A stretch of 58,366 nt of DNA from Bacteroidota bacterium (GTDB lineage Bacteria > Bacteroidota > Ignavibacteria > Kapaibacteriales > UBA2268). Location: positions 1 through 58,366 of the forward strand of contig JBDQHL010000004.1 of NCBI GenBank assembly GCA_040264895.1, given 5' to 3'. Under the pieces are notes generated by a model that searched no databases, was not told where the DNA came from, and saw only the letters and a list, made by a program, of their open reading frames with translations. This document shows, in pieces, positions 8,786 to 50,590 of the stretch; position 1 is the stretch's first letter, and every line of letters begins with the position of its first letter. Both the position numbers and the translations under genes were made by a program.

Positions 8786-9894
8786 GTATGTTAGAAACTA
8801 TATCTGAATTGGAACACCACTTAAGGCCAATGATAGCTTACTTGCCAGCAGATGCTGCATCACGCATAGCCTCGTTAGGTAAAAGAGAGTTTCTAAAAAA
8901 ATATGTTCAAGACTCACTTGACAACAGAGTTGTGTTTAGTGATAATCACTCGGTAAAACTGTGGGATATTACTTTCAACTCACCAATATTCAACGCTGCT
9001 GGTATGTTCAAACTGGGTTATGGTTACCAGGTAGTAGCAAACCAAGGTGCAGGTGCTTTTCTTGCCGGGACTACAACATTTCACAATCGCGAAGGAAATA
9101 TAAAACACAAGGTTAAGCATCCATTTTTGCCATTTCCTCGCTCAGAAGCTGCAATTAACTGGATGGGGCTTCCCAACCCAGGGCACGAAGTAGTTGCTGC
9201 AAGACTTAGTAAAATAAACAAAATGAATGGATGTCCTGTTGGCGCATCATTATCCTACGACTCTACTGATACAAAAGAAATAGCACTTAAGAATATAGTC
9301 AAAGGAATGGAGATGTATATGTTGGCAGACGTTGATTTCATAGAGATAAATGAAAGCTGCCCTAATGTAGAAGGAAAGTCAGTTGACAATAATTTAGAAC
9401 AAGGATTGATAGATAGATTAGAATATATATCAACGAACTTCATTAAGAATACCGAAAGAAATCTACCCGTAATCGTAAAGCTTTCCAACGATACCAATAT
9501 CGCTCAAGTAGAAGAAGTTACAAAATTATTAATTGATATGGGTTATGGTGGTGTTAACTTTGGAAATACATCTACCCGATACAAAGATTTAGAGAATTTT
9601 ATAGACAGAAAAGAAAAACACCATTATTATTACTTTTATAATACTTTTGGTGGGGGTGTGTCTGGCGAACCATTAAAAATGGTTTCTCTTGAGTTAGCTG
9701 AAAAGGCCGCAAGTACAGTATCTGAGATCAGTTTAAGTAATGAATTTCACGTTATCAGAACTGGTGGAATCAGTGAAAAAGCTGATATTTTGGCTTCTGA
9801 AAGAAGGGGAATATCACTCAATCAATGGTACACTGGTTATTTTAAAAACTTTGCTCTGAATGGTCACAAGCTTTATAAAAAATTATTAGACTAA
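8782..9894 (+). CDS. dihydroorotate dehydrogenase-family (class-2-like scaffold) TIM-barrel flavoprotein, divergent
   Basis: DHODH-like blocks: FNSPIFNAAGMFK, INWMGLPNPG, IEINESCPNV, GGGVSGEPLK and IRTGGI. The start overlaps the rpoN stop (ATGA). Confidence 0.6.
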   Translation: MSMLETISELEHHLRPMIAYLPADAASRIASLGKREFLKKYVQDSLDNRVVFSDNHSVKLWDITFNSPIFNAAGMFKLGYGYQVVANQGAGAFLAGTTTFHNREGNIKHKVKHPFLPFPRSEAAINWMGLPNPGHEVVAARLSKINKMNGCPVGASLSYDSTDTKEIALKNIVKGMEMYMLADVDFIEINESCPNVEGKSVDNNLEQGLIDRLEYISTNFIKNTERNLPVIVKLSNDTNIAQVEEVTKLLIDMGYGGVNFGNTSTRYKDLENFIDRKEKHHYYYFYNTFGGGVSGEPLKMVSLELAEKAASTVSEISLSNEFHVIRTGGISEKADILASERRGISLNQWYTGYFKNFALNGHKLYKKLLD

Positions 9895-10826
9895 GTAACT
9901 GCCCAAAGTGAATCAGCGAAAAAATGCCTACAGTCATAGAAGTTTTTTATTTTCTTAAAGCCAGTTTTAGCAGCTAATTCCTCTGTCTGCTGTTCTGTGT
10001 ACTTCTTCGATACTTCCATAAATATGGGTTCAGCATATTCTAATTGAAACTCATGTGCTCCAATTATAACTTTCTGCTTAGCCATACTAATCAGATAGCT
10101 TTTTGCTTCACCTGTAGATGGGTCATAAGTAGGATAATGCTTGAATTTAGTCAAATCAAAATTGCCACCCAACTCATCGTTTATTCTTTGAAGTAAATTT
10201 AGGTTGAACTTGGCTGTAATGCCTGTCCTATCATTGTATGCGTCTAATATTATGTTCGGATCTTTTCTTAGGTCAAACCCAATATATATGTAGTCGTTTT
10301 TGGTTAAGTTTTGGCTGATTGCTTTAAGAAATTCGAATTCCTGCTCATCTTTGAAATTCCCAATATTTGAACCAAGGAATAATACAATTTTTGTTGTATT
10401 TTTTTTAGATAAAGATTCTAATGCTGAAAAATAATCATTGTTGTGGAGGTTAATATTAAGGTTTGGCAAGTCTTTTTTAAAGTTTGATTCTAATCCATCT
10501 AATGCAGATTTGCTAATATCAATGGGTGAATAGATTAAATCTGGCTGATGTTTTAGAAACTCTTTGAGTAGTAGCTTTGTTTTACTACCATCACCTGCTC
10601 CAAATTCGACTATCTCATATTTCTTTGTACTGTCAATTGTGTGGTATATTTCTTCTGATTGTGTTTCCAATATTTCATATTCTGAGTTTGTTAAGTAATA
10701 CTCTGGCATGTCCATTATCATCTGGAATAGTTTACTACCTTCTTGATTATAGAAGTATTTGGATGGTAATTTCTTTGGGTTCTGACTTAGGTGATTTACT
10801 ATATCTTGTAAAAAAGTATCTTGCAT
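9891..10826 (-). CDS. EgtD-like SAM-dependent N-methyltransferase (histidine N-alpha-methyltransferase family)
   Basis: 311 aa. The N-terminal LPSKYFYNQEGSKLFQMIMDMPEYYLTNSEYEIL, the SAM motif IVEFGAGDGSKT and YSPIDIS match the EgtD/Methyltransf_33 pattern. Confidence 0.65.
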   Translation of the reverse strand: MQDTFLQDIVNHLSQNPKKLPSKYFYNQEGSKLFQMIMDMPEYYLTNSEYEILETQSEEIYHTIDSTKKYEIVEFGAGDGSKTKLLLKEFLKHQPDLIYSPIDISKSALDGLESNFKKDLPNLNINLHNNDYFSALESLSKKNTTKIVLFLGSNIGNFKDEQEFEFLKAISQNLTKNDYIYIGFDLRKDPNIILDAYNDRTGITAKFNLNLLQRINDELGGNFDLTKFKHYPTYDPSTGEAKSYLISMAKQKVIIGAHEFQLEYAEPIFMEVSKKYTEQQTEELAAKTGFKKIKNFYDCRHFFADSLWAVT

Positions 10827-10901
10827 TTTGTCTTTGTTGTTTTCAATAAAGATACTGATTAATATTCTAAATATATAAAGTGGAGTGTAATGTGATTAAC
10901 A

Positions 10902-11393
10902 CTAATGACATTTAAAATGTTCAAAGGGTTGATCACAATCATTGCAGAAATATAGTGATTTGCAAGCAGTGGCAGAAAATTCAGCCCTCATCTCTGTATT
11001 GTCAGAGTTGCAGAATGGACAGGCAACAGAGTCGGTATTATTCAGAATATTGTCAATGCTGAATTCATTTGTTTTCCCAGGAGGTGCTATTCCTGATTCC
11101 TTTAGTTTTTCTTTAGCCTCATCACTCATCCAGTCAGTAGTCCATGCTGGAGAAAGTACAGTTTCTACCTTTACTCTTTCTACTCCATTAGCTCTTAGTT
11201 CTTCTACTATTCTTTTTCGGATTTCATACATAGCTGGGCAACCAGAATAAGTAGGTGTTACGGTGATAATAGCTACATCTTCTTCGATTCTGGCTCCACG
11301 CAATATACCCATGTCAGCGATGCTGAGATAAGGAATCTCAGGATCGCTAACATTTTCGAGTATTTTTAATATGTTTTCTTCAGTTATTACCAT
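10902..11393 (-). CDS. paaD: 1,2-phenylacetyl-CoA epoxidase subunit D
   Basis: 163 aa. DUF59/MIP18-like N-terminus (DPEIPYLSIADMGILRG) plus a C-terminal Cys cluster (CPFC...CNDC). Located in the paaABCD gene order. Confidence 0.85.
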   Translation of the reverse strand: MVITEENILKILENVSDPEIPYLSIADMGILRGARIEEDVAIITVTPTYSGCPAMYEIRKRIVEELRANGVERVKVETVLSPAWTTDWMSDEAKEKLKESGIAPPGKTNEFSIDNILNNTDSVACPFCNSDNTEMRAEFSATACKSLYFCNDCDQPFEHFKCH

Positions 11394-12163
11394 TTAGCAT
11401 CAGGCATAGACCTAGGCAGATATTGCATAGCAGCAAGGATATGACCTAAGCTTTCGCTATGTCTTCCATTTCTTCCACCAGACTGCATCCATACATCAGG
11501 ATCCATTTCATCTAGTTCACTTTCTTCTAATATTTTATTTACTGTCTTATAGTACTCATCACGCTTCTTACTCATATCTGGGGCAATCCCTTCATTTATT
11601 AGAAGTTCATCAACTTCATCCGAGTAAAAAAGTTCACCTGAATAACTCCAAAACCAGTCTACAGCATCTTTCATTCTTCTGTGACTTTCTTCTGTGCCGC
11701 CACCAAGTTTTAGCATCCAATCGCGACTGTGGCGTAAGTGATATTTAGTTTCTTTGATTGCTTTAGCAGCTATAGCTTTTAGGTCTTCATCTTTACTGTT
11801 TACTAAGTCGGAGTAGAGTAATATCTCATACACATCGAACAATAGCTGTCTGAATATAGTGTGAGCAAAATCACCATTGTCTTGTTCAACTATTTGAACA
11901 TTGGTGAATTCTCTTTCATTTCTAAAAAATACCAAATCATCAGCACTTGTATTTTCGTTAGTCAACTCTGCTGCTTTCTCATAGTACAACTTAGCCTGAC
12001 CTAATAGGTCAAGAGCTGTATTCGTAGTAGCTATATCTTCTTCCAATATGGGACCATGACCACAAAGCTCAGACAAACGTTGTGACAATATCATTCTATC
12101 GTCTGCTAATCTTATGGTATATTCCCTTACAGCATTTTTTAATTTATCATCAGTGTACGTCAA
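11387..12163 (-). CDS. paaC: 1,2-phenylacetyl-CoA epoxidase subunit C
   Basis: 258 aa ferritin-like helical protein lying between paaB and paaD. It overlaps both neighbours, consistent with an operon. Confidence 0.85.
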   Translation of the reverse strand: MTYTDDKLKNAVREYTIRLADDRMILSQRLSELCGHGPILEEDIATTNTALDLLGQAKLYYEKAAELTNENTSADDLVFFRNEREFTNVQIVEQDNGDFAHTIFRQLLFDVYEILLYSDLVNSKDEDLKAIAAKAIKETKYHLRHSRDWMLKLGGGTEESHRRMKDAVDWFWSYSGELFYSDEVDELLINEGIAPDMSKKRDEYYKTVNKILEESELDEMDPDVWMQSGGRNGRHSESLGHILAAMQYLPRSMPDAKW

Positions 12164-12455
12164 CGTTCACACCTTTTGGAATCTTATAAAATGTTGGGTG
12201 TCGATAAACCTTATCATTTGCTGGATCAAAGAAAGGACCTACATCTTCGGGTGTGCTGGCAACTATATGTTCAGCAGGAACAATCCAGATTGCAACTCCT
12301 TCTTGTCTTCTAGAATATACATCGCGCGCATTTTGTAAAGCATGCTCAGCATCAGTTGCGTGTAGGCTACCTACATGTTGATAAGGGCGACCAGACTTAG
12401 GTTGTACGAATACTTCCCAAAGTGGCCATTGTGTATCTTGATTAGTATCAGTCAT
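12150..12455 (-). CDS. paaB: 1,2-phenylacetyl-CoA epoxidase subunit B
   Basis: 101 aa with the characteristic WPLWEVFVQ...GRPYQHVGSLHA...ARDVYSRR. Confidence 0.9.
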   Translation of the reverse strand: MTDTNQDTQWPLWEVFVQPKSGRPYQHVGSLHATDAEHALQNARDVYSRRQEGVAIWIVPAEHIVASTPEDVGPFFDPANDKVYRHPTFYKIPKGVNVDVH

Positions 12456-12484
12456 AATGTTTTCTTCTTTTGTTATCTTTCTAG

Positions 12485-13420
12485 TTAAGCTACTTTACTT
12501 TTCTTCTTCTTATTATATGCATCTGCAGCATCGCGAACCCATTTCCCATTGTCATGAGCGGCATTCCTGTCAGCTAATCTCTTTTTGTTCATTATTCCAT
12601 TGCCTTTGATGACATTGAAGAATTCATCCCAATCAACTTCACCGAATTCCCATTGTTTGGTTTCTTCATTGTATTTCAAATCTTCGTCAGGAATTGTCAG
12701 GCCACGTGCATGAGCTTGTGGAACAGTCATAGTGATGAACTTTTGTCTTAATGAATCATTACCTTCAGCTTTTATCTTCCACTTAAGTGATTGGTCTGAG
12801 TGAGTAGAATCCTTGTCAGATGGGCCAAACATCATGATAGCAGGCCACCACCAACGATTAAGTGCATCCTGAGCCATTTCTTTTTGCTCTTCAGTTCCTG
12901 CACAAAGCTCAGCTATTATCTCATATCCTTGTCTGTTGTGGAATGCCTCTTCACGGCATATTCTGACCATAGCTCTCGAATAAGGTCCATAGCTAGTACC
13001 GATTAAGCTAACTTGATTTACCATTGCTGCACCGTCTACTAACCAGCCAATAGCACCCATATCTGCCCATGTTAAAGTCGGGTAGTTAAATATAGATGAA
13101 TATTTTGCTTTACCACTATGTAGGTCTGCTAATAATTGCTCTCGTGGTGTGCCTAACGTTTCGGCAGCCGAGTACAAATACAAACCATGCCCAGCTTCGT
13201 CTTGCACTTTTGCCGTAGCGATTAATTTACGTCTCAATGAAGGAGCTCTTTGAATCCAGTTTCCTTCTGGTAGCATGCCAACTATCTCGCTGTGAGCATG
13301 CTGTGACATCATTCGAACTAAGTTCTTACGATATGCATCAGGCATCCAATCTTTTGGCTCTATTTTTTCGCCAGCGTCGATTTTTGCCTGAAACTCTTCT
13401 AATCTTTTAATATCTTCCAT
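12485..13420 (-). CDS. paaA: 1,2-phenylacetyl-CoA epoxidase catalytic subunit A
   Basis: 311 aa di-iron oxygenase pattern (HAHSEIVG...DEAGHG...EEAFH) typical of PaaA. Confidence 0.95.
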
Positions 13421-13561: not shown

Positions 13562-14546
13562 ATGAAGAGAATTGTACTACTATTACTATTAACCAGTTTC
13601 ATTACTTTGAGTGCAAAAAATGAGATTGTTATTAAACAAAATGTTCAAAGTTTAGTGCAACATGGAGACAATGAAGGTAAGATATTCTTCGTTGCTTTTC
13701 CTTATAATGATTACAAACAACAACCAACTCAAAACTTGGCTATCTATGTTACTTCAAGATTTGACACTGAAGTAACCGTATATAATGAGGAATTAGCTTT
13801 AAATGTGACTAAAAGTGTGAAGAGAGGAGAAACAACAGAATTTTCCTCCGTCAAAGGCGGACTTAGTTGGGATGCAGAAATATATGATTTTGAAGAAGTT
13901 ATTGGCAAAGGTGTTAGGATTATCTCTAAGGACCCAGTAAAAGTCTACGTTTTAAACTCAAAAAATGTCACTAGTGAAGGATATATGGCTGCACCACTTA
14001 GAAAATGGGGAACTGAATATATTCATAATAGCTCTTATGATTTTGATGAAGTGAGAGAGTGGGGTGGTGGATTTGTTGTATTAGCTAGAGATGATGCCAC
14101 CAGTAGACTCGTGGGGTTCGGAGTATCACTCACTTGAATTAGATAGAGGAAAAGATAAGGGTGATTATTTTAGAGTTGTTGCAGGTGAAGATAATGTCAC
14201 GTTCGAAATCGTGTGGTACGATAAAGAAACTAAAGAAAGAATTTCTGATATTGGTCCAATTACACTTCCTAAAAAAGGAAACTGGTTTGAATATAACGGT
14301 GCTGGTGCTATAACTTCAATAGAGGACTCAGGTACTAGAGAAATTAGAATTTTAGACCCTCAACCAATAGTAAGCAACAGATTAAACATAGAGCTACCAA
14401 ATTACTTGAATAATACTTTAACTCTATCTGATATAGAGGGGAATATATTAAGAACGGTAGATGCAAATGGAAGCCAAATATCGATAGATATTTCGGATCT
14501 TTCTAGTGGTGCTTACTTCATAAATATATCAGATGGCAAGAGCTAA
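13562..14546 (+). pseudogene. frameshifted secreted protein (IgGFc-binding-N-terminal-like repeats) with T9SS C-terminal sorting domain
   Basis: Two overlapping ORFs (13562-14137 in frame 2, 14091-14546 in frame 0). The first has a signal peptide and a WGTEY motif. The second repeats WGSEY and ends in a T9SS CTD-like segment (LNIELP...LTLSDIEGNILR...LSSGAYFINISDGK). The frame change must lie between the frame-0 stop at 14082-14084 and the frame-2 stop at 14135-14137. Confidence 0.55.
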
Positions 14547-20674: not shown

Positions 20675-22522
20675 CTATATCATTCTTTTAGGCGAAAGAA
20701 AATCATCTAACTCTTTCTGTGTCATCAACTCTTTATCTAGAGCTAATTGGTAAACACTATTGTTAGTTGTAAGAGCTTCCTTAGCCAAGTTTGAACATAC
20801 TTCATAGCCAAGCTTTGGTACTAAAGCAGTAACCAAACCAATACTATTTTGAACGGAATGTTTTAGATGATCTTCGTTAGCAGTAATACCATTTACACAA
20901 CGAGTAGCTAAAGTATTTATGCCATTTTTAAGGTGAAGTGTACTTTCGAATATACTTACTGCTATTACTGGTTCCATTACATTTAGCTGCAATTGACCAG
21001 CCTCAGCTGCCATAGTAACTGTTAAATCATTTCCTATCACATTATAAGCTATCTGATTAACTACTTCTGGGATTACTGGATTCACCTTACCTGGCATAAT
21101 TGATGAACCTGGTTGAACCTTTGGTAGGTTGATTTCCCAAAAACCTGCTCTTGGTCCAGAGCTTAGTAACCTCAAATCACTACAGATTTTAGATAGTTTT
21201 ATAGCTAATCTTTTTAATGCAGAAGAATACATAACAAACGCACCAGTGTCTTGAGTAGCTTCTACCAAATCAACTGCAGAACGTAATTTATATCCTGTTA
21301 TTTCCTTCAGATGATTTACAGCAATTTTCTTATATTTAGGGTTAGCATTTAACCCAGTACCTATAGCTGTACCACCTAAATTAATCTCATTGAACAAACT
21401 AGCGTTTTCATTTAGTCTGTCAATTTCTTCTTTCAGTGTGTTCGCAAAAGTAGCAAATTCTTGACCTAAGGTCATTGGAACAGCATCTTGTAGTTGGGTT
21501 CTACCAACTTTAAGTATTCCAGAAAACTCTTTTGACTTTTTGTCAAACTCTTCTATTAGTCCTTTTAATTCAACCTGTAATTTTTCATTGAAGTGGAGTA
21601 AAGTTATTTTCAGAGCTGTTGGGTAAACATCATTTGTTGATTGAGCATAGTTAACGTGATTATTAGGATGACAATACTCATACTCACCCAATTTCTTACC
21701 CATTAACTTTAGGGCTCTATTAGCGATGACTTCATTTGCGTTCATATTTGTAGAAGTACCTGCACCACCTTGGAACATATCAACTATAAAGTGAGTGTGA
21801 TATTTTCCTTGCATTATTTCATCACAAGCTTCAATAATCGCATCTGCTATTTTGGGTTCTAACTCATCTAAGTCTTTATTAGCTCTGGCTGCTGCTTGCT
21901 TTACCATTGCCAATGATTTTATAAATCTTGGGAATAGTCTTAGTGTAATACCACTTATATTGAAGTTCTCGGAAGCCCTTAGCGATTGTATACCATAGAG
22001 TGCGTCTTCGGGAACTAATTTGTCTCCAATCATATCAGTTTCTGTTCTTGTTGCACCAGTAGAATAGCGCATTGCAATATTATCACCACTATATGTATTT
22101 CTCATCCTCCTGGAAATCATTCTAGATGCTGCTGCAATTAATTTTACCATTATCTTGGTATGGTTCTCCATCATTCTGGAGTAATCTTTTCTGTCCAGTA
22201 CTAATAATCTACAGTCAGTGGTTGCTTTAGCAGAAAGTGAGTAGGGGTAATTATCCATTAGAGAACCTTCACCAAATACCTCGTTCTTTTTGAACCTATT
22301 TATTGTCCTAGTAGCACCATTTTCCTTAGTTGAAAATTCAGAAATAGTACCTTTTTGTAAAACAAATAGACAGTCACGGTTTTGACCTTGTTCTACTATT
22401 ATTTCGCCTTTCTTAATTTCTTTTACGTCCATGTGTTGAGCTATTTTTAATCTCTGCTCATCGTTCAATTCATCGAATAATTCTATTCCGAAGAGTACCT
22501 TGGATATTTCTACTGTTGTCAT
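20675..22522 (-). CDS. aspA: aspartate ammonia-lyase with N-terminal cyclic-nucleotide-binding domain
   Basis: Residues from about 150 to 615 match aspartase/class II fumarase (QGGAGTSTNMNANEV, QSTNDVYPTA, GSSIMPGKVNP). Residues from about 10 to 140 show a cNMP-binding/CAP-effector pattern (FDELNDEQ..., KKGEIIVEQGQ..DCLFVLQKGT, FGEGSL, RLLVLDRKDY). Confidence 0.9.
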   Translation of the reverse strand: MTTVEISKVLFGIELFDELNDEQRLKIAQHMDVKEIKKGEIIVEQGQNRDCLFVLQKGTISEFSTKENGATRTINRFKKNEVFGEGSLMDNYPYSLSAKATTDCRLLVLDRKDYSRMMENHTKIMVKLIAAASRMISRRMRNTYSGDNIAMRYSTGATRTETDMIGDKLVPEDALYGIQSLRASENFNISGITLRLFPRFIKSLAMVKQAAARANKDLDELEPKIADAIIEACDEIMQGKYHTHFIVDMFQGGAGTSTNMNANEVIANRALKLMGKKLGEYEYCHPNNHVNYAQSTNDVYPTALKITLLHFNEKLQVELKGLIEEFDKKSKEFSGILKVGRTQLQDAVPMTLGQEFATFANTLKEEIDRLNENASLFNEINLGGTAIGTGLNANPKYKKIAVNHLKEITGYKLRSAVDLVEATQDTGAFVMYSSALKRLAIKLSKICSDLRLLSSGPRAGFWEINLPKVQPGSSIMPGKVNPVIPEVVNQIAYNVIGNDLTVTMAAEAGQLQLNVMEPVIAVSIFESTLHLKNGINTLATRCVNGITANEDHLKHSVQNSIGLVTALVPKLGYEVCSNLAKEALTTNNSVYQLALDKELMTQKELDDFLSPKRMI

Positions 22523-34885: not shown

Positions 34886-35410
34886 ATGTCAACAGCTAAA
34901 ATACCACCGATTAATTTTAAGAAATGGATAGATGAGAACCGCCACCTACTGAAACCACCAGTTGGAAATCAGCAGGTGTACAAAGACGGCGAGATGATAA
35001 TAATGGTCGTTGGCGGCCCAAATGGCAGAAAAGATTACCATTATAATGAGACACCTGAGTTCTTCTATCAAGTAGAAGGGGACATAACAGTCAAGATAAT
35101 AGATGATGGCGAATTCCGCAATGTAAATATTAAGGAAGGTGAAATATTCTTACTACCGGGCAAAATACCTCACTCACCTCAAAGACCGGCAAACACAGTT
35201 GGCTTAGTGATAGAGCAGGTAAGAAGAGATGGCGAAATAGATGCCCTAGAATGGTATTGCGAGAGTTGCCAGAACAAGTTAGCACGTAAAGAATTTGCAA
35301 TGAAAAATATTGTAACAGAACTACCAGTGAAAATGGAAGAATTCTTTGCTGATAAGGAAGCGAGAACTTGCGACAATTGTGGTACTGTGATGGAAAAGCC
35401 AGAGAAGTAA
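34886..35410 (+). CDS. nbaC: 3-hydroxyanthranilate 3,4-dioxygenase
   Basis: Cupin core (HYNETPEFFYQVEGD, EGEIFLLPGKIPHSPQR) plus a C-terminal rubredoxin-like CxxC...CxxC (CESC...CDNC), characteristic of HAAO/NbaC. Confidence 0.9.
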   Translation: MSTAKIPPINFKKWIDENRHLLKPPVGNQQVYKDGEMIIMVVGGPNGRKDYHYNETPEFFYQVEGDITVKIIDDGEFRNVNIKEGEIFLLPGKIPHSPQRPANTVGLVIEQVRRDGEIDALEWYCESCQNKLARKEFAMKNIVTELPVKMEEFFADKEARTCDNCGTVMEKPEK

Positions 35411-40014: not shown

Positions 40015-40153
40015 TTTAAAATATTTTTTTCTATATTAAACCTTTCCACTAAAGTAAATTTAGAATTTATTGTAAATAATAAAAATAAAGAGTGCTTATA
40101 AACCATTTTTTACTATTTGAAAATTTAAATTAAAATTCGTAAAATAGATATAC

Positions 40154-40165
40154 TGCAATATTGCA
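40154..40165. promoter_or_regulatory. perfect 12-bp palindrome TGCAATATTGCA in the divergent trkA / cluster promoter region
   Basis: Read directly from the sequence. It sits about 80 nt upstream of the 40245 start and 140 nt upstream of trkA. Confidence 0.2.
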
Positions 40166-40244: not shown

Positions 40245-42542
40245 ATGTCTAAAGGCGGTGCTGGAAAGGTATATTTCGTACTTTACTTAGCGGTAGTATT
40301 AGAGCTCCTAATTATTATCGTAGAGAGAGATGAAGCGGAAGAACACCTTCACAAAAAGCAAAAAGAGGCAATGAAGATTGTCCAATCAATCCTTTCGCAA
40401 CTTCAGTCTGGTTCAGGTACTGAAGGTATTAACACAAGACCACAAGATGAGATTACTATTCCACCTCCAGGTGTGAATATTAAAGAAGTGCTTGGTACTG
40501 ATATCAAATCATATAGAAGATATATAGTAGAAGTAGGTGTGACTGATGTTAGTGCAACTTCCGGACAACTGGAAGGTGAACCAAAGAAAGAATACTTAGA
40601 AAGATTAGAAAAATTAGTTCGTTTGGCTAATGTAGAGGACTTAGAATATCAAGTGTTCTACAATAGTAGCCAAGAGACTGGTGCTGTTCCTCCTTTCCCT
40701 GGGGATGATTTTTTCAAGGAAAAGAATTACGATTTCGCTGAGTTTGAATTAGGTAATACTGTTACAGATCCAGAGTCAAATGAAATCTGGGAATTTATCG
40801 GTGTCCAAAAAATATTGATGGACGATAATGCTACTTTCGAATCATTAGATTTAAGTGATATTAGCACCGAACTAATGCACCCAATTTATGACCCAGAAAG
40901 AAGAGTTATACATGGTTCAACTTTTGCGCCAAGTAATACTCCAGAAGATAGCGTTTTCTTCTACTCTGAGGAAGAAACTAAGATGGCTTCTGGAATTTAT
41001 GGTAACAGAGGAACTCTGAACAAGCGTGCATTTGTTGTGAACTTCCAACCGCCAAGTAAAGCTGGTTGGTATAAATTAAGGTTCGTATCAAGAACTAATA
41101 GAATCTTGGGTGTGCGTTCTGACCAAAAAGTAGAAGAACTTGATAAAGAAGCTACTGTTAATATTGGTACAGTACAACTTAAGATAGAAGATCTATTAAA
41201 GGTTAAAAAAGAATTAGGAAGAAAATTAGAAAAATATGATATCCCTGAAGAAGATGTATTAACATCAGCAGGTGGATTCCGTGAATTTGATGAGCAAATA
41301 GATGAAGCTAAAAAGCGTGCTTCTACAGAAGAAGATGCTGGAGATTTGATTGGAAACATCAGATTGTATGGATATATAGTTAAACTATTGACTCCAGGTC
41401 AATCTCAAAACTTTGATCAAAACAAAGGTGATATAGAGTTTAACATACGTGTTATGACTCCTAAGCCAAAAATTGCTGAACCAGTCGTTCAAATTGCTAA
41501 TAATTTCTATAGGTTCGACGACAGCAAAGTTAATTTTAGAATGTCAATTTCACCTTATCAAGGTGATGCAAATGTAATAAGAGGTACTGTTCACGATGCA
41601 GCTGCAGGGCCATCTAGCCAGCCAGTTGCGACGGTAAGCTTTGAAAGAGCAACTGAAGGTACTCCTGGAAGTGGTGGTAGCGTTGATTATATAGGAACAG
41701 TGAGCCAAGAATTAGCAGCTAATGCTAATGGTGGTCCACGTAATTATATATTAAAAGTTAAACACCAATTGCAAGGTAAAGAAGATGAGAAAACTCCAAA
41801 TCTAGTTGTTTTCCCTTCTTTAGTTGAAGAGAAAATAAATGCTCTTAAAAGTAAGTTAGGATTCTTGGCAGTATATGGTGAGCAATTGTTCTTCAACTTT
41901 GAGCCACCTTCGGGTAACAAAATTCAGCCTGAGCAATTTGGTTATTATTTTGAAACTGATGCTGATGCTCAAGATAGAGGCTTGATGACAGGTCTTGGTG
42001 CAACAAGAGCTGACAATCTATACTTCTCAGCTGATATGAAAAAAGCTTCTTTAAGAATAGTGTGGACTGACCCTATAACTAAGCAAGAAGTTGATATATT
42101 CCCTAAACATGAATTTACTATACTTCAAGCTGAGCCAGGTGTAGCAACTATAAATCAACAAAACAGTGTTTCTGTTGACGGCGAAATGCTTAGAGTTAGA
42201 GTATCTGGTATTAACATTACTGCTCCTAAAATTGGACAAGAAGGTAGTGATGCCGAAGCAGAGGTGGATATATCTCTATCTCCTCCACAAGTCAGAATAC
42301 CTGGTTACCAAGCAGTTGGAAAACCAAATATTACAATCAAAGGTGGTAAAGCTCAAATTGACTTAACTCTAAGAGGTGAGCCTGATGATGATGGTAATAT
42401 AAGAGGTACTGTAGAAATTCTTGGCCAAGCAGTTGCGACAAACCCAGTTAATGGTGTTCAGTCAGCTCCTAAGCCAATAAAGATTTCAGTGAGCGTTAAG
42501 CAAAAAGTTGAAGCACAAAATGATTATTACGAAGACTATTAA
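40245..42542 (+). CDS. envelope cluster protein A: N-terminally membrane-anchored, large periplasmic protein, unknown family
   Basis: 765 aa. There is a single TM helix (VYFVLYLAVVLELLIIIV) containing a Glu, then a short coiled segment, then about 700 aa of beta-rich sequence with Ig-like-looking C-terminal modules. There is no signal-peptidase site. Good RBS-like context (AAAGGTAAAAGATG). Confidence 0.7.
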   Translation: MSKGGAGKVYFVLYLAVVLELLIIIVERDEAEEHLHKKQKEAMKIVQSILSQLQSGSGTEGINTRPQDEITIPPPGVNIKEVLGTDIKSYRRYIVEVGVTDVSATSGQLEGEPKKEYLERLEKLVRLANVEDLEYQVFYNSSQETGAVPPFPGDDFFKEKNYDFAEFELGNTVTDPESNEIWEFIGVQKILMDDNATFESLDLSDISTELMHPIYDPERRVIHGSTFAPSNTPEDSVFFYSEEETKMASGIYGNRGTLNKRAFVVNFQPPSKAGWYKLRFVSRTNRILGVRSDQKVEELDKEATVNIGTVQLKIEDLLKVKKELGRKLEKYDIPEEDVLTSAGGFREFDEQIDEAKKRASTEEDAGDLIGNIRLYGYIVKLLTPGQSQNFDQNKGDIEFNIRVMTPKPKIAEPVVQIANNFYRFDDSKVNFRMSISPYQGDANVIRGTVHDAAAGPSSQPVATVSFERATEGTPGSGGSVDYIGTVSQELAANANGGPRNYILKVKHQLQGKEDEKTPNLVVFPSLVEEKINALKSKLGFLAVYGEQLFFNFEPPSGNKIQPEQFGYYFETDADAQDRGLMTGLGATRADNLYFSADMKKASLRIVWTDPITKQEVDIFPKHEFTILQAEPGVATINQQNSVSVDGEMLRVRVSGINITAPKIGQEGSDAEAEVDISLSPPQVRIPGYQAVGKPNITIKGGKAQIDLTLRGEPDDDGNIRGTVEILGQAVATNPVNGVQSAPKPIKISVSVKQKVEAQNDYYEDY

Positions 42543-42560
42543 TATTTCAAAGGTAAATTA

Positions 42561-44306
42561 ATGAACAAAAGTACAATTAAAGTATATGCGGTGTTCCTTA
42601 TCTTATTTGGGTTTGCATTAACTAGTACGCAAGCACAAAGAATAGATGATGTAACTTCCATACTATCTAAGTTCAAAAACTATAGATTTGGTGCAGTGAA
42701 CGTCTACAAAATCACAACTCCAGACGAGTTAAAAGAGATTGTAGAATCTAAAAGGAAGAAAGCCACAAGTGCCGGTGCTGCAGATGCGAAGTGTTTGGAA
42801 GAAGTTGATCCTGCAATTAAGGATATAGTTGAAAAAGGTATTTTGTCTGGGAGCTCTCAAACAGAAATAGCTAGAACTATAATAACTTCAGGATATACTC
42901 CTCCAGAAGCAACAATCTTGGATTGTGTTTACAAGAATTTGTATGACCAATTAGTTGGTGGTGGAGAAGCTACTACACCTAAGGCTTACTTAGTTACATC
43001 TCGTCCTGAAAAAGGGGAACTTCCGGATAGAATCATTGGTATGATTTATATGGAGTTAGACTTTGACCAGGCTCAGAGAGAGATTAGAGAAGATTTAGAA
43101 TTTGTATCTACTGATAATATCTATTCTTATGATAGACTTAAAGATACTAAGATAGATCCTGCTAAGTATGGTTACGAGAATATGTATGACTTAACTTATG
43201 CATATTTGATTCAAGGTAACTTTGAGAACGAAACTATGGCTGCAAGAGCAATTGGTACTGATGTAATTTACCTAGATAAGGTTTACGGAGTATCTCAGCC
43301 ACTGATCAGCAATAATAGAATTAATTCTAGAGATATTCAGATTTACAAAAGAATATCAGCAGGACAACCTGAGAAGTATATAGGTAAAAGCAATATACTT
43401 ACTGCAAGTCCTGATTTGATTAGCTGGATACAATATGACATACAGTACCAAAGAAAGAGAGACGGTTCTATTGCAACTGACTCACTTGGAAACAAATTAA
43501 TAAATCCAAGAAGAGCTAGTAATGATTTCCTACCAAACTTTGGTATTGAACTTAAGTATGGCATTGAAGGTATTAACTATCCTTCTTTCTGGAGTAACAG
43601 AATGACATTGTCTGCTATATGGAAGAATGTGAAATTTGGAGTTATACTACCAACTGATGGTTGGGGATCATTCTCTGAAGATGTATTCAACCAACAACGT
43701 ACTATGACTTATGGTGGTGTTGGTGTAGCTGGTGAGTTAGACTTCCCATTTGCTATCATCCCAAGAAGTGATGTATTTAGAGTCAATTTTGGATATGTAT
43801 TCGGAGATGCTGAACCAGGTCCTGGTACAGCTGGTGCTGATTTAGATCCATTGACATTTAATCAAAACCCATTCCAAAATGATCATCTAATGAGATTTAA
43901 TTTGCAAGCACATTATACTTTTGGTATCAGTGTTGATGAAGATTACTTCATGCGATTTAGTCTTGGTGGTACTGGTTACTCAATGGAAGATTGGGGATAC
44001 AATATTGACTTGGATGATGAAGAACCAGAAGCTTCATTTGAAGAAAGAGGTAGCGAATTCGTTGGCGGTCTTTCTGGTAAATTAGAATTTATGACTACTA
44101 ATAACACTACACCGTTTGGTGGTGGTATTCAGTACTTCGATGAATCATTACAATTCAATGGTTGGGTTCAAGTACCAGTAGTTGAAAACACTTTCTCTAT
44201 TAGATTAGAAGCTAACGGATATGCAGTAGCATTCAGAAAGGAGCCAAGACTTTGGGAAATGAATTCATTGTTAGTCCCTATGGCACGTTTGATCTATGTA
44301 TTCTAA
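42561..44306 (+). CDS. envelope cluster protein B: secreted protein with putative outer-membrane beta-barrel C-terminal half
   Basis: 581 aa with signal peptide (...ALTSTQAQ). The C-terminal roughly 280 aa show alternating hydrophobic/polar strands and Gly/aromatic girdle residues, and end in ARLIYVF (terminal Phe). It begins 18 nt after A. Confidence 0.65.
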   Translation: MNKSTIKVYAVFLILFGFALTSTQAQRIDDVTSILSKFKNYRFGAVNVYKITTPDELKEIVESKRKKATSAGAADAKCLEEVDPAIKDIVEKGILSGSSQTEIARTIITSGYTPPEATILDCVYKNLYDQLVGGGEATTPKAYLVTSRPEKGELPDRIIGMIYMELDFDQAQREIREDLEFVSTDNIYSYDRLKDTKIDPAKYGYENMYDLTYAYLIQGNFENETMAARAIGTDVIYLDKVYGVSQPLISNNRINSRDIQIYKRISAGQPEKYIGKSNILTASPDLISWIQYDIQYQRKRDGSIATDSLGNKLINPRRASNDFLPNFGIELKYGIEGINYPSFWSNRMTLSAIWKNVKFGVILPTDGWGSFSEDVFNQQRTMTYGGVGVAGELDFPFAIIPRSDVFRVNFGYVFGDAEPGPGTAGADLDPLTFNQNPFQNDHLMRFNLQAHYTFGISVDEDYFMRFSLGGTGYSMEDWGYNIDLDDEEPEASFEERGSEFVGGLSGKLEFMTTNNTTPFGGGIQYFDESLQFNGWVQVPVVENTFSIRLEANGYAVAFRKEPRLWEMNSLLVPMARLIYVF

Positions 44307-44334
44307 AAATTGTAAAACAGAAAGAAATATAAAT

Positions 44335-45774
44335 ATGAAAAAAATAACATCTTTAATAATAGTAAGCATTTTGATGATAGCAGGAGCTACTTACACTAGC
44401 AATGCTCAGGCATCAGGTGATTATGACTACGTTGACTCACTAATGACTATAGATTATGAGTTACGAAAAATGTTCCCACGTTGGAAGGTTTGTGAACCGG
44501 ATTTACAATTCCAGATATATCAAGCGTTCTCAATATATGGGTACTCAAAGGACGAATTAAATATAGAAGAAATTGAAGTATTAGCTTCACCAAAGCCTCC
44601 CAGAGAAAGAAATTATGAAATACTTTTACTTTCTTGTGGTGATGCAACAATGAACCCTCAAGAAATAGATCAAAATATAAAGACTATTTCTAAGTATCTA
44701 TCTGGCGATAAGAACTACAATAGATTTGAAAGACCAACTCCAGGTGCTGACCCAAGAACATATTGTTACATTGAGGTTCCACCTGAGGTTCCAGTTAAGC
44801 CATCTGAGGCAACTGCAATTCAAGACTATTTGAGGCCAGAAGATAAAATTCAAGCGATTACTCTATCATTATTTGAGCAATCACTTAAAGTTGGTGAAAC
44901 TGGGTTTTGGCTAAATAATAAAGTTGGTACAGATGAAGTTGGTTACCATTTTTGGTCAGCTGGTGAAAGTAAAATGACTTTACAAAGACCACTAATGAAC
45001 AACACTGACCCTGAAACTCGTGAGTATGTACCAAGATTAATCAATGCATACTTAGGTGGTGCTTACAGACATTCATCTGGTATTGATAACGAAGGAACAG
45101 CTTTTTCTTGGGTAAGTAACAGAATATTGAATTCTGGCCCTGATGGTAAAATTGTTGCAGGTTTTGATGTTCACATGCCTTTCCACCCGCAGTTCGGTAT
45201 AGGTTTGAACTTAGAACTTCCATTTAGCGATTTAAGAACTGAAGCAGTTGCTCCTGGTGACTATGGCACTTATGCAAATACTGATGCTAGCTTTACTGAT
45301 GGAAGAGGTGGTAACGATGATGTTGATGTTCTTGGGGTTGCTCCTTTATTAAGAGAGACTGGTCAAGCGACGTTATTTTATAACTGGTGGTTAGGTTCAG
45401 ATAATACACCATCACATTATTTCAGATTTGATGTTGGTGCAAGTTATGCTCAAGTTGATGAATATTTAATGTATGAAGAAAATTTCTCTTATACTTTAGA
45501 AAGAAACGGAGTTTCTGGACTACAAACTTACAAACCAGATTCATTTGGTGATTGGTTCTATTTCAGAGCTCAGTATAGAAATCAACAAGCATTTCCATTT
45601 AGCTTAAGCATGCAAATATCAAATCAGATATTATTAGCTCAAGCTTATATGCCAATATTTGGGAACTGGTTCTTACTTGAAGGAAGATTCTCTACAATAC
45701 TAAGGGACGAAATCAGACCTTTCGAAATTCAAAACTTCTTTATGATAAGTCCTGTTCTTAGGATAACTATCTAA
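44335..45774 (+). CDS. envelope cluster protein C: secreted paralog of B with putative beta-barrel C-terminal half
   Basis: The start was set at MKKITSLIIVSILMIAGATYTSNAQA (signal peptide); the longer ORF begins at 44296. The C-terminal blocks parallel those of B (for example RPFEIQNFFMISPVLRITI against RLWEMNSLLVPMARLIYVF). Confidence 0.65.
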   Translation: MKKITSLIIVSILMIAGATYTSNAQASGDYDYVDSLMTIDYELRKMFPRWKVCEPDLQFQIYQAFSIYGYSKDELNIEEIEVLASPKPPRERNYEILLLSCGDATMNPQEIDQNIKTISKYLSGDKNYNRFERPTPGADPRTYCYIEVPPEVPVKPSEATAIQDYLRPEDKIQAITLSLFEQSLKVGETGFWLNNKVGTDEVGYHFWSAGESKMTLQRPLMNNTDPETREYVPRLINAYLGGAYRHSSGIDNEGTAFSWVSNRILNSGPDGKIVAGFDVHMPFHPQFGIGLNLELPFSDLRTEAVAPGDYGTYANTDASFTDGRGGNDDVDVLGVAPLLRETGQATLFYNWWLGSDNTPSHYFRFDVGASYAQVDEYLMYEENFSYTLERNGVSGLQTYKPDSFGDWFYFRAQYRNQQAFPFSLSMQISNQILLAQAYMPIFGNWFLLEGRFSTILRDEIRPFEIQNFFMISPVLRITI

Positions 45775-45795
45775 ATTGGTAATTTGATTTAACAA

Positions 45796-45828
45796 GCCCT
45801 TCTGTTTAAAACAGAGGGGTTTTTTTTT
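45796..45828 (+). terminator. rho-independent terminator after cluster gene C
   Basis: Stem CCCTTCTGT/ACAGAGGGG (one mismatch) followed by T9. Confidence 0.65.
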
Positions 45829-45854
45829 ATACTATCTTTCAGTAACTTGCAGCT

Positions 45855-47207
45855 ATGTTAAAAACCATGTATATATTATTATTAACATTCCTATTCTCTT
45901 TAGTTAGTTTATCTGCAAATCAATCAGATACATTAACAAAAGTCCCTTCTGCTAAAGATTCGTTAGCTAAAAAGCAAGATCTGATGCGAACAGCACAAGT
46001 TACCTATGAGCAAAAGGAGATTAAACTTACAATCCAGAATGTCGACATTTCCAATTATCCTATTATTAAGGTAATTGTTGAGGCGTATAATATATATGGT
46101 CAGGCATTAGATACTTTATATTCTGAAGGATTGAGTGTATTAGAAAATGGAAAAGAATACCAAGTGATTTCAGTTGATAAACTATCAATTAATGAAAGAG
46201 TTCCTGTTGATTTTGTTTTTGTAATAGACCAGACTGGTTCTATGCAATCTTATATCGATGCAGTTAGAAAAAAAGTTCGTGATTTGACAGACTTTCTTAA
46301 AACCCGAGGTATTGACTATACGCTTGGATTAGTTTTATTTTCAGATGAAGTTGATAGAGTATATCAACCAACACCAGATGTTAATGATTTCCTTAGTTGG
46401 ATTGGTAGAGTAAAAGCTAGAGGTGGTGGTGATGTTAAGGAGAATGCTCTTGAAGCATTAGAGGCAACTGCTGACCAAATAGAATTTAGACCTGCTGCGA
46501 ATAAGGTAGCTGTTTTAGTGACTGATGCGCCATATCATCAAGCTGGTGAAACTGGAAAAGGTACGAGTGACCATACTACAGAGTCAATAACAAAGAAGTT
46601 ATTTGAAGATCAAGTTAGAGTATTTAGTATTGTCCCACCAAGACTTACAGCGTATAATTATATATCATCGAATACTCGTGGGAACTTCTACGATATAGAC
46701 TATCCTTTTTCAACTATTTTGGATAATTTTTCAAATCAGTTGACAAATCTATATGCATTAAAATACAGAACAAATAAACCAGCTATTCCTGATAGCATTG
46801 ATATTGCAATAATTAATGAAAGAAAAGAAGAGCTAACAAAAAAGACTATTCCAATTGTAGAATTAGGTAGAAAGCTAATTATTGAAAATATGCTGTATCA
46901 GACTGGTAGCTCAAATCTGCCGGATACTGTTCCTGAATTAGAAATAATGACGGAATTTATGAAAAACAGAGAGAATGTAGTTGTTATGATAGAAGGTCAT
47001 ACTGACGCAATCGGAAGCTATGCTACTAATGATAGACTTTCTAAACAGAGAGCTGAAAGTGTTAAGCGTTATCTTATAAAAAATGGTATTGCTAAAAGAC
47101 GAATCAAAACTGCGGGTTACGGCGAAAGAAGGCCAATAGCTTCTAACAAAACTGATTTTGGTAGAAAACTTAATCGGCGAACCGAGATAATAATAATAGC
47201 TAAGTAG
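45855..47207 (+). CDS. secreted vWA-domain protein with C-terminal OmpA-like peptidoglycan-binding domain
   Basis: Signal peptide. The vWA MIDAS region is VFVIDQTGSM, with later TDAPYH. The OmpA_C signature is IEGHTDAIGSYATNDRLSKQRAESVKRYL...NRRTEI. Confidence 0.85.
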   Translation: MLKTMYILLLTFLFSLVSLSANQSDTLTKVPSAKDSLAKKQDLMRTAQVTYEQKEIKLTIQNVDISNYPIIKVIVEAYNIYGQALDTLYSEGLSVLENGKEYQVISVDKLSINERVPVDFVFVIDQTGSMQSYIDAVRKKVRDLTDFLKTRGIDYTLGLVLFSDEVDRVYQPTPDVNDFLSWIGRVKARGGGDVKENALEALEATADQIEFRPAANKVAVLVTDAPYHQAGETGKGTSDHTTESITKKLFEDQVRVFSIVPPRLTAYNYISSNTRGNFYDIDYPFSTILDNFSNQLTNLYALKYRTNKPAIPDSIDIAIINERKEELTKKTIPIVELGRKLIIENMLYQTGSSNLPDTVPELEIMTEFMKNRENVVVMIEGHTDAIGSYATNDRLSKQRAESVKRYLIKNGIAKRRIKTAGYGERRPIASNKTDFGRKLNRRTEIIIIAK

Positions 47208-49156: not shown

Positions 49157-50590
49157 CTACTTTGCAGTAACTTTGAACATTGTTCTTCTGTTTTGCGCTC
49201 TACCTTCTTCTGTGTCGTTCGGCGCAACTGGTTGGCTAAGACCAAACCCACGATATCTAAGTCTGCGGTCTTCTATTCCTTTTCTTATAAGAGCATCCAT
49301 AACTGCTTTTGCTCTTCTTTCAGATAAATCTTGATTGAATTCTTCACCACCAATATTGTCAGTGTGTCCTTGTATTTCTAACCTGATACTTGGCTTAGAC
49401 ATCATAGCATCAATTATCTCATTAAGAATAGGCTCTGACTGAGGTTGCAAATCTGCTTTGTTATATTCGAATAATATAGGTCTTTTGAAGACCTCACCCA
49501 AATCGCTCCAAGGGAATAAATCACTAGTGTCATAGTTGTCAATTGCAACCATTACTGAATCTCTTCCAGGTACAGTTATTTCAGAAAACACTTTGTGGAA
49601 ACCCCAATATTCAGGTGGTTGGTATGTGATAAGATAATATTGCCTTAAGCTATTGTATATATCACGGATTACAGCTATTAGTTCTTGTTTCGATTTTGCA
49701 CGATAGAACCTACCACCTGTGTATTCTGCCATATAGACTAATTCCATATCCTGAGAATAGCCGAATGCTACTGTGAAAATGTGAACTTTTTCTTTCTTGG
49801 CGTATTCTATAACTTTGCCAATATCAACTTTGGAGTAGTTGTCATCTCCATCAGTGAACAGCACTAATACTCTTGGATCATCTTTGCTGGTTTCGCTTAG
49901 GATTTTTATATTCTCCACTACTGCATTTCTCATGGCTGAGAATAATCCTTTTTCTGAGTTTTTCTTTGCGTTGAATAGCTGCTTAAGTGTTGAAGTGTCT
50001 TTGTTCATTGGTACTTTGTAGTCAAACTTATTGTTGAAGCTACTTATACCAATATTATCATAAGCCATTTTTTCATCAATAAGAATATTAGTACCAAGGT
50101 GGATAATGTCGAGTACTGGCTCCATAGAACCGCTGTAATCTATTGTTAGCATTAAGTTATAGGGAATAGAATCGCCTTTGCCGTACTCACGCACTGTGAA
50201 CTCAGGTACATTTTCCATTCGCTTTTTGTATAACTTACCCAACTCTTCATCTAACTGAGTGAAGTAAGTTATGTCTTTGTTCTGCTTATATGGGTCTGCC
50301 ATTTGAGTAGCAAAATTACCAAGTGAGTCATAGACTCTGGTGAACAGGCGTATCTCATCAGGGTAGTCGTCATATTCTAATCGGAATATGTCATAAATCA
50401 GTTGGTTTGGATTGAGTGAGTCAATTGGTTTTGAATCAGAGATGTAAATGTTGTCGTAGTCTACAGTATCAGAAATTTCATAGTCATTATCAATGTCCTG
50501 TTGCATAGCAAAACCCTTTGGTTTCTCTCTGCTACCACAAGCGGAAATTAACACACTAAGAAATATGACAAATAGACTTTTCTTCAACAT
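49157..50590 (-). CDS. lipoprotein with vWA domain and C-terminal OmpA-like domain (paralog of 45855-47207)
   Basis: Lipobox LISAC. MIDAS region LTIDYSGSM, with later FTDGDDN. OmpA_C signature IQGHTDNIGGEEFNQDLSERRAKAV...NRRTMF. Confidence 0.85.
   Translation of the reverse strand: MLKKSLFVIFLSVLISACGSREKPKGFAMQQDIDNDYEISDTVDYDNIYISDSKPIDSLNPNQLIYDIFRLEYDDYPDEIRLFTRVYDSLGNFATQMADPYKQNKDITYFTQLDEELGKLYKKRMENVPEFTVREYGKGDSIPYNLMLTIDYSGSMEPVLDIIHLGTNILIDEKMAYDNIGISSFNNKFDYKVPMNKDTSTLKQLFNAKKNSEKGLFSAMRNAVVENIKILSETSKDDPRVLVLFTDGDDNYSKVDIGKVIEYAKKEKVHIFTVAFGYSQDMELVYMAEYTGGRFYRAKSKQELIAVIRDIYNSLRQYYLITYQPPEYWGFHKVFSEITVPGRDSVMVAIDNYDTSDLFPWSDLGEVFKRPILFEYNKADLQPQSEPILNEIIDAMMSKPSIRLEIQGHTDNIGGEEFNQDLSERRAKAVMDALIRKGIEDRRLRYRGFGLSQPVAPNDTEEGRAQNRRTMFKVTAK

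Follow-up and report, generated by a model that had tools for sequence, protein, structure and literature searches.

A conserved four-gene cell-envelope cluster of Kapabacteria-type bacteria as a candidate envelope-spanning module

Organization of the gene cluster

The DNA analyzed here (in the following called the window) is a stretch of 58,366 nucleotides (nt) from a Bacteroidota bacterium of the Ignavibacteria, order Kapaibacteriales (GenBank assembly GCA_040264895.1, contig JBDQHL010000004.1, positions 1 to 58,366). Four genes, termed A to D, follow each other on its + strand, as was already claimed in a preliminary description made from the sequence. Gene A (40245-42542) codes for 765 amino acids (aa), gene B (42561-44306) for 581 aa and gene D (45855-47207) for 450 aa. 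Gene C (44335-45774) codes for 479 aa from its likely start; its open reading frame (ORF) begins at an ATG at 44296 and would give 492 aa, but the start is probably at 44335 because the C homologues begin at the methionine of the motif MKKITSL. The spacers amount to 18 nt between A and B and, counted from 44335, to 28 nt between B and C, which agrees with the preliminary description, as does the hairpin followed by nine T residues in front of D. The order of the genes is conserved among relatives, and their products may together form a lineage-specific module in which A, a putative inner-membrane protein with an exceptionally conserved membrane helix, would be combined with two putative outer-membrane barrels (B and C) and a putative cell wall-binding protein (D).

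The GC content of the cluster (0.345-0.362) is the same as that of the rest of the window and the neighboring genes are housekeeping genes, coding for a phosphoribosyltransferase, an M28 peptidase and a MlaD protein; upstream, the opposite strand carries trkA/trkH-like genes. A mobile-element origin of the cluster was therefore rejected.

Family searches with A, B and C yielded no Pfam or NCBIfam family at E≤1 and no PDB sequence, neither with the single sequences nor with profiles of 79-105 homologues. The profiles of PADLOC (anti-phage defence) and PHROGs (phage proteins) did not match these three proteins either, while D was matched there solely via its OmpA/MotB-like domain. GldM/PorM, PorP/SprF and known porins, named in the preliminary description as families to which the proteins might turn out to belong, gave no profile match. 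A, B and C appear to represent three undescribed protein families, as had been proposed. In a collection of 5.8 billion proteins 617 homologues of A were found, all of which are hypothetical proteins from metagenome-assembled genomes labelled Kapabacteria, Kapaibacterium, Ignavibacteria or Chlorobiota, and when 1.84 billion cluster representatives were searched with a profile, 217 clusters at 50% identity were returned, pointing to a family that is real but narrow. For B and C, 103 and 324 homologues, respectively, were obtained, which carry no Pfam domains.

Protein A

The N-terminus of A consists of eight residues, a hydrophobic stretch (residues 9-26) and an acidic flank, which fits a bitopic protein with its N-terminus inside. 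In an AlphaFold2 model, calculated from a 95-sequence alignment (predicted local distance difference test score, pLDDT, 81), a long helix at residues 6-56 includes the membrane span and is followed by mixed alpha/beta domains (about 67-313), a helical segment (314-382) and three or four immunoglobulin (Ig)-like beta-sandwich domains (396-754). Hydrophobicity and model thus both agree with the earlier view that A has one N-terminal transmembrane helix and otherwise lies outside the membrane. When the whole model was compared with PDB and BFVD using Foldseek, generic tandem-Ig proteins were found (KIT, ICAM, cadherins and phage Ig-like proteins) with template modelling (TM) scores below 0.2, and GldM/PorM structures were absent among the best 50 of 241 matches at E≤0.001. 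A Pfam scan of 61 diverse members of the A family at E≤5 did not reveal any recurring family.

Across these 61 proteins mean column identity is 27%, and the invariant residues lie almost all in positions 1-45 (Y10, F11, L13, Y14, L15, A16, E20, L21, L22, I24, R28, D29, A31, E32, L35 and I45); beyond them only F263, G308 and N393 are invariant. The predicted transmembrane helix VYFVLYLAVVLELLIIIV, encoded by codons 9-26 (40269-40322, + strand), contains an invariant glutamate, Glu20. Column entropy is 0.17 bits in this helix and 0.88 bits in the juxtamembrane helix (27-56), compared with 2.5-2.9 bits in most periplasmic segments and about 1.8-1.9 bits in two patches (251-325 and 367-410). According to these values the predicted membrane helix is conserved far above any periplasmic domain and appears unlike a passive anchor. 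This near-invariant, glutamate-bearing helix is the most telling feature of the cluster and, like the paralogy of B and C described below, goes beyond what had been noticed before. A type IV prepilin-like or TatA/B-like N-terminus was considered and rejected, since Glu20, counted from a Gly cleavage site, is not at position +5 and a Gly/Pro hinge is lacking.

Parts of A were also encountered in other contexts. A beta-hairpin-plus-helices module (residues 251-382, about 40995-41390) recurs in the proteins P0463 and P0466 (794 and 814 aa; profile search E 4e-19 and 4e-17). Because NCBI lists one of the two as a 'T9SS type A sorting domain-containing protein', T9SS standing for type IX secretion system, the module appears to be used by putatively secreted proteins as well. 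P0430 (locus L085, 10001-11194) and P0437 are stand-alone proteins of about 390 aa from an organism of 29% GC that match residues 64-406 of A; their membrane helix is different and non-conserved, and they have no B, C or D neighbors. P0413 and P0414 match residues 398-756 only, behind a signal peptide. These four proteins may be a split or repurposed form of A. In locus L078 (9001-11128) A is distributed over two overlapping ORFs (9001-10518 and 10490-11128), due to a frameshift, a pseudogene or an assembly error. Finally, the A homologue P0004 (76% identical) was named 'chemotaxis protein CheY-P-specific phosphatase CheC' by JGI. Since it has no recorded Pfam domain and none of the scanned members of the A family matched a chemotaxis family, this name looks like an annotation error.

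Proteins B and C

Both B and C start with a type I signal peptide-like sequence (..TQA|Q and ..SNA|Q, respectively) without a lipobox cysteine. In C an N-terminal alpha/beta domain with conserved Cys53, Cys101 and Cys144 is followed by a beta-barrel-like domain (residues 174-478), for which the AlphaFold2 model (pLDDT 86) shows about 15 beta-strands between residue 174 and the C-terminus. With a few low-probability exceptions (OpgG), the Foldseek matches listed for this model are outer-membrane barrels; they include OmpU as the best match (E 5.8e-4), AlgE (probability 0.93-0.97), Wzi, OMPLA, FapF, OmpG, TbuX, BcsC and porins. C is thus predicted to be barrel-like, with no close solved relative. 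With its signal peptide, the modelled strands and these mostly barrel-type matches, it would belong to the outer-membrane beta-barrel class.

B comprises an N-terminal domain of about 300 aa and a C-terminal barrel-type domain paralogous to that of C. A direct BLASTP comparison of B with C gave no similarity. Profile-profile comparison with hhalign, on the other hand, aligned residues 378-579 of B with residues 261-479 of C (probability 93%, E 3e-7), a part of C that is modelled as 10-11 strands. The alternating-hydrophobicity score of B is 0.97 in residues 320-581 versus 0.51 in residues 30-320, and that of C is 1.21 in the strands versus 0.73-0.75 outside them and in the N-terminal region. 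B ends in a phenylalanine, F581, which is conserved in at least 90% of its homologues, and a C-terminal motif, R..P.WE....F..SP....[FI], is common to B and C and recurs in all deep variants of the cluster. Because of the profile-profile match, the alternating hydrophobicity, the terminal phenylalanine and the shared motif, B and C are most probably diverged paralogues of one new barrel family. The homologous C-terminal domain, the terminal residue and the hydrophobicity pattern would place B in the outer-membrane beta-barrel class too. The signal peptides and barrel-like C-terminal halves that had been proposed for both proteins were thereby supported, for C by model and fold matches and for B through its alignment to C. 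In a Pfam scan of 74 members of the B/C family at E≤5 no family recurred; a single barrel family, OMP_b-brl_2, appeared for one member (E 0.12).

The folds best matched by C (AlgE, Wzi, FapF, OmpG and FadL/TbuX) are all beta-barrels that sit as monomers in the outer membrane and have 12-18 strands, and C would resemble them. Family-specific N-terminal domains and the shared motif R..P.WE....F..SP set C and B apart from them. AlgE, Wzi, FapF and BcsC are among the highest-probability matches, and it could be asked if the cluster serves in polymer export (exopolysaccharide, amyloid or surface fibre), with B and C as pores like AlgE, Wzi or FapF and A as a co-polymerase-like or guiding part. This appears improbable, as the matches are weak (E 1e-3 to 3e-2, TM-scores 0.2-0.4), the cytoplasmic part of A is nearly nil (eight residues), and genes for a glycosyltransferase, polymerase, Wzx/Wzy, ABC exporter or amyloid subunit are lacking among the conserved neighbors of the cluster (78 loci, see below).

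Protein D

D carries a type I signal peptide (..LSA|N) without a lipobox, an N-terminal beta-rich region, a vWA domain and an OmpA-like domain. The latter two, already recognized in the preliminary description, score above the Pfam gathering cut-offs (VWA, residues 119-259, 41.9 bits with a cut-off of 23.8; OmpA, residues 348-441, 79.8 bits with a cut-off of 27.2), and VWA_2 and VWA_4 were found as well. The metal ion-dependent adhesion site (MIDAS)-type residues D125-x-T127-G-S and T223-D224 are kept in 63 D orthologues, and so are the peptidoglycan-binding residues GHTD384 and N440-R441-R442. Because of the signal peptide without lipobox and these conserved residues, D is most simply viewed as a protein of the periplasm that is bound to the wall and offers a metal-dependent binding face.

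By its domains D would be a member of the broad class of proteins that combine vWA with OmpA_C. It shares the standard peptidoglycan-binding module with its conserved GHTD...NRRTE with such anchors as Pal, YiaD, PorE and the C-terminal domains of MotB and ZorB, but differs from other OmpA_C anchors in forming an orthologous group of its own that is tied to A-B-C. D does not reach the cut-off of any named OmpA-type equivalog in NCBIfam, and its orthologues score 400-900 bits, versus 50-70 bits for other vWA-OmpA paralogues.

On the opposite strand, about 2 kb beyond the end of D, lies the gene for a second protein with vWA and OmpA domains (477 aa, lipobox LISAC; 49157-50590, - strand). A similar paralogue, scoring 60-73 bits against D, occupies the same relative position in other loci (e.g. 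L003, L004, L033, L039, L044, L047, L077 and L079).

Conservation of the gene order

A is encoded in 252 of 185,579 species genomes. Synteny was analyzed by a hidden Markov model scan over 80 of these 252 loci, the ones listed, and none of the 80 comes from an isolate. Each related locus that was long enough (about 60) contains A-B-C-D in the same order and on the same strand, so that the adjacency on which the preliminary description had relied is conserved and the arrangement is not due to chance. Clustering of flanking ORFs found A in 78 loci, B in 76, C in 66 and a vWA-OmpA cluster, in which D is merged with its paralogues, in 62. The next-best neighbor, trkA, occurs in 21 loci. Besides A-D nothing is conserved in the 78 loci, and neither an inner-membrane partner nor a stator-like, T9SS or gliding gene was obtained. 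The genes upstream vary (trkA/trkH, an HD-domain protein and others); in locus L001 the two upstream genes code for an HD-domain protein and a small barrel-like protein.

Deep variants of the cluster are found in genomes of 49-63% GC. They encode a shorter A (541-641 aa) with the same N-terminus, followed by two barrels without D in L083 (A of 541 aa, barrels of 564 and 462 aa) and L087 (556, 560 and 472 aa), by two barrels and a D of 420 aa in L088 (586, 564 and 421 aa), and by three barrels and a D of 446 aa in L086 (A of 641 aa, B of 669 aa, B' of 462 aa and C of 515 aa). As A is retained with two or three barrels and D is missing from some of these variants, the invariant core consists of A and two or three paralogous barrels, and D is usual yet dispensable. 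As a unit, the four genes are robustly conserved and restricted to one lineage, an uncultured class, and a literature search on T9SS or gliding in Kapabacteria or Ignavibacteria yielded no mention of the A-D cluster.

Such an arrangement could reflect independent envelope proteins that are merely co-regulated and do not form a common machine. B and C would then be diffusion or specific channels, A a periplasmic scaffold or an adhesin-like protein and D a general tether between outer membrane and cell wall. The fold matches, all of them generic (Ig repeats, porin-like and exporter-like barrels, an OmpA domain), speak for this explanation, as do the dispensability of D and the presence of a second vWA-OmpA paralogue close by. 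That A is followed by barrels from 35% to 63% GC, with all flanks changing, is however hard to explain without functional coupling, and the extreme conservation of the transmembrane helix of A would not be expected in a passive scaffold. We regard this explanation as unlikely.

Putative control elements

Upstream of A a promoter-like block is located at 40104-40148 (+ strand), with TTGAAA (40117-40122) and TAAAAT (40140-40145) separated by a 17-nt spacer. This sigma-70-like match (10 of 12 positions) lies within blocks that are invariant in eight aligned relatives, whereas the flanking intergenic DNA is variable, and the block would act as the promoter of A. Between C and D a hairpin of 13 pairs followed by T9 resembles an intrinsic terminator (45794-45831, + strand) and would terminate or attenuate transcription. 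Of 64 related loci, 40 have a comparable hairpin with a T-run between C and D, which suggests that A-B-C form one transcript and that D is expressed separately or through read-through. Median spacers across related loci are 49 nt (A-B) and 33 nt (B-C).

A perfect 12-bp palindrome, TGCAATATTGCA, is situated at 40154-40165 between the promoter-like block and the start codon of A. It was rejected as a part of the system, being only partly kept in the closest relatives (L003 and L004) and absent in the group with 76% identity.

Comparison with known trans-envelope systems

In architecture A-D would most resemble the T9SS cores centered on GldM/PorM, Tol-Pal and the TonB-dependent systems. All tests for membership by sequence and gene context failed, and for this reason the cluster is taken to lie outside these families, although it may work like one of them. 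TonB and TolA signal via a conserved polar residue in their single transmembrane helix, and carboxylates are found inside membrane complexes, for instance the Asp of TolR, ExbD and MotB. By analogy only, the buried, invariant Glu20 of A recalls such proteins that work inside a membrane complex. Likewise, the Glu of GldL works with the helix of GldM (PMC8986121).

With Tol-Pal and TonB-ExbBD the cluster would share a single-pass inner-membrane protein that has a polar transmembrane residue and crosses the periplasm, partners in the outer membrane and an OmpA-type binder (D, like Pal). It differs from them in that TolA, TonB_C, TolB, Plug and TonB_dep_Rec domains are missing and genes for TolQR/ExbBD are not linked. 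D in turn differs from Pal by its type I signal peptide in place of a lipobox and by its vWA domain, and reaches 65 bits on the Pal_lipo model (cut-off 125). A sharper version of the envelope-spanning idea would see A as a dedicated analogue of TonB/TolA, whose Glu helix sits in an ExbBD/TolQR-type proton channel encoded elsewhere and whose arm gates or energizes B and C for uptake or export. That the transmembrane helix with its invariant buried carboxylate is the most conserved part of A is consistent with this idea; in the model A is also long enough for a periplasm-spanning arm, and the extra N-terminal domains of the barrels could serve as plug or docking modules. TonB_C, TolA, Plug and TonB_dep_Rec were not matched even at E up to 5, however, exbBD and tolQR are not linked to the cluster in the 78 loci, and the distal end of A is poorly conserved. 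This version therefore seems doubtful to us.

In GldM/PorM, which is bitopic in the inner membrane, the N-terminal part in the cytoplasm is very short, the transmembrane helix is functionally important, and the periplasm is spanned by a chain that ends in Ig-like domains (PMC5790014; PMC8986121). By its model A is similar in its bitopic N-in topology and its periplasmic Ig-like domains, a likeness of architecture only. It differs from GldM in having alpha/beta domains at the place of the helical D1, and it lies outside a gldK-gldL-gldM-gldN or porKLMN operon, always being followed by the barrels B and C and then by D. GldM_N and GldM_C of Pfam and the NCBIfam model of GldM did not match A at E≤1 nor any of the 61 family members at E≤5, and the Pfam and NCBIfam profiles of PorP/SprF, PorV and PorQ did not match B or C.

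The preliminary description had suggested an accessory or novel apparatus in an organism that uses T9SS cargo signals. Such a signal is indeed present in the window (Por_Secre_tail on the ORF at 14091-14546), and it is the only T9SS link. In an accessory or alternative T9SS or gliding module A would be a GldM/PorM-like arch, B and C would be PorP/SprF-like or PorV-like and D a PorE-like anchor. In favor of it are the similar parts list, the T9SS cargo of the organism, the recurrence of module 251-382 of A in proteins annotated with a T9SS sorting domain, and a weak match of the OmpA domain of D to the PorE model (65 bits versus a cut-off of 600). Given the failure of all GldM, PorP/SprF, PorV and PorQ models, the lack of GldM/PorM among the best 50 of 241 fold matches of A and the lack of gldK, gldL and gldN neighbors, we consider such a module very improbable. 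Of the earlier interpretation, the part that stands is that the cluster encodes only envelope proteins, three of them of no described family; for the proposed link to T9SS or gliding no evidence was found, and no such gene is a conserved neighbor in the 78 loci.

Two further comparisons were made. A has no AsmA or DUF490 match in Pfam, and its model consists of discrete alpha/beta and Ig-like domains and not of the long beta-taco of TamB/AsmA-like proteins. The Myxococcus Glt/Nfs systems combine bitopic inner-membrane proteins with paralogous outer-membrane barrels, a parts list that resembles A-D and serves as a lead only: A, B and C have no Pfam or NCBIfam match, and AglRQS-type motor genes are not found nearby.

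A possible envelope-spanning module

We tentatively favor, with somewhat less than even confidence, the explanation that A, B, C and usually D constitute a lineage-specific envelope-spanning module of Kapabacteria-type bacteria. A would be held in the inner membrane by its N-terminal helix and span the periplasm with a chain of domains of about 700 residues that ends in Ig-like repeats. B and C would be two outer-membrane barrels, each with its own N-terminal domain, and D would hold peptidoglycan by its OmpA-like domain while its vWA domain offers a metal-dependent surface for a partner. Together the four proteins would tie or bridge the inner membrane, the cell wall and the outer membrane. 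Because the membrane helix with its buried Glu is far more conserved than the periplasmic domains, A may act by a specific contact inside the inner membrane, either by self-association or by docking into a partner encoded elsewhere. A candidate for such a partner is an ion-driven stator, as for GldM in GldL, TolA in TolQR and TonB in ExbBD.

That A-B-C-D are strictly co-linear in about 60 loci whose flanks are unrelated favors this explanation, and so do the short A-B and B-C spacers and the persistence of A with two or three barrel paralogues in the deep variants of 49-63% GC. The models of A and C, the paralogy of B and C, the signal peptides, the terminal phenylalanine of B, the domains and conserved residues of D and the low entropy of the Glu20 helix also speak for it. 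Several points weigh against it. The distal Ig-like domains, which would be expected to face B and C, are the least conserved part of A (2.8-2.9 bits). Among the conserved neighbors in the 78 loci there is no gene for a stator-like or other inner-membrane protein, D is absent from the deep variants L083 and L087, and a terminator-like element lies between C and D. The barrel of C is a prediction, with weak fold matches (TM-scores 0.2-0.43, identity 7-10%), and that of B is argued from sequence. Gene order, conservation, domain content and predicted folds of A-D are as described above; contact among the four proteins, in contrast, is something that we infer, as are their localization, energy coupling and cellular role. 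Finally, envelope proteins that are co-regulated and otherwise independent would yield the same synteny.

A more far-reaching variant of the envelope-spanning explanation, which we think rather unlikely, is that A-B-C(-D) is a previously unrecognized trans-envelope machine confined to Kapabacteria and coupled to the ion motive force. The Glu20 helix of A would enter a stator encoded elsewhere, and its periplasmic arm would pass a movement or conformational change to a heteromeric pair of novel outer-membrane barrels. Such an ion-driven machine would be a new solution, analogous to GldLM, TolQRA and ExbBD-TonB without being homologous with them.

What is new at this locus are the families of A, B and C and the four-gene unit; the fold types are common and the trans-envelope kind of module is known. 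Should A-D turn out to be parts of a single complex, an entire class of uncultured bacteria related to the Bacteroidota, common in sediments, bioreactors and hot springs, would connect its inner membrane, cell wall and outer membrane in a new way, and three protein families would be added to the catalogue of envelope machinery. The B/C family would widen the known range of outer-membrane barrels, and the near-invariant Glu20 helix offers a sharp handle on a putative inner-membrane partner of A. If the four are independent envelope proteins, the gain in annotation is modest.

Further genes in the window

Some other genes of the window were noted. The ORFs at 13562-14137 and 14091-14546 overlap on the + strand, and the second carries the Por_Secre_tail domain mentioned above; a frameshift or a sequencing error may have split a single T9SS cargo gene into these two (13562-14546). 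An unusual regulatory fusion of 615 aa is encoded at 20675-22522 (- strand), where an N-terminal cyclic-nucleotide-binding domain precedes a class II fumarase/aspartase-type lyase (Lyase_1 and FumaraseC_C). Genes of the phenylacetate-CoA oxygenase type (PaaA/PaaC-like twice and PaaD-like) are located at 9891-13420 (- strand) and 34886-35410 (+ strand), and the same regions encode a histidine-specific methyltransferase of the Methyltransf_33 family (EgtD-like) and a 3-hydroxyanthranilate dioxygenase. These genes hint at the catabolism of aromatic compounds and tryptophan in this organism.

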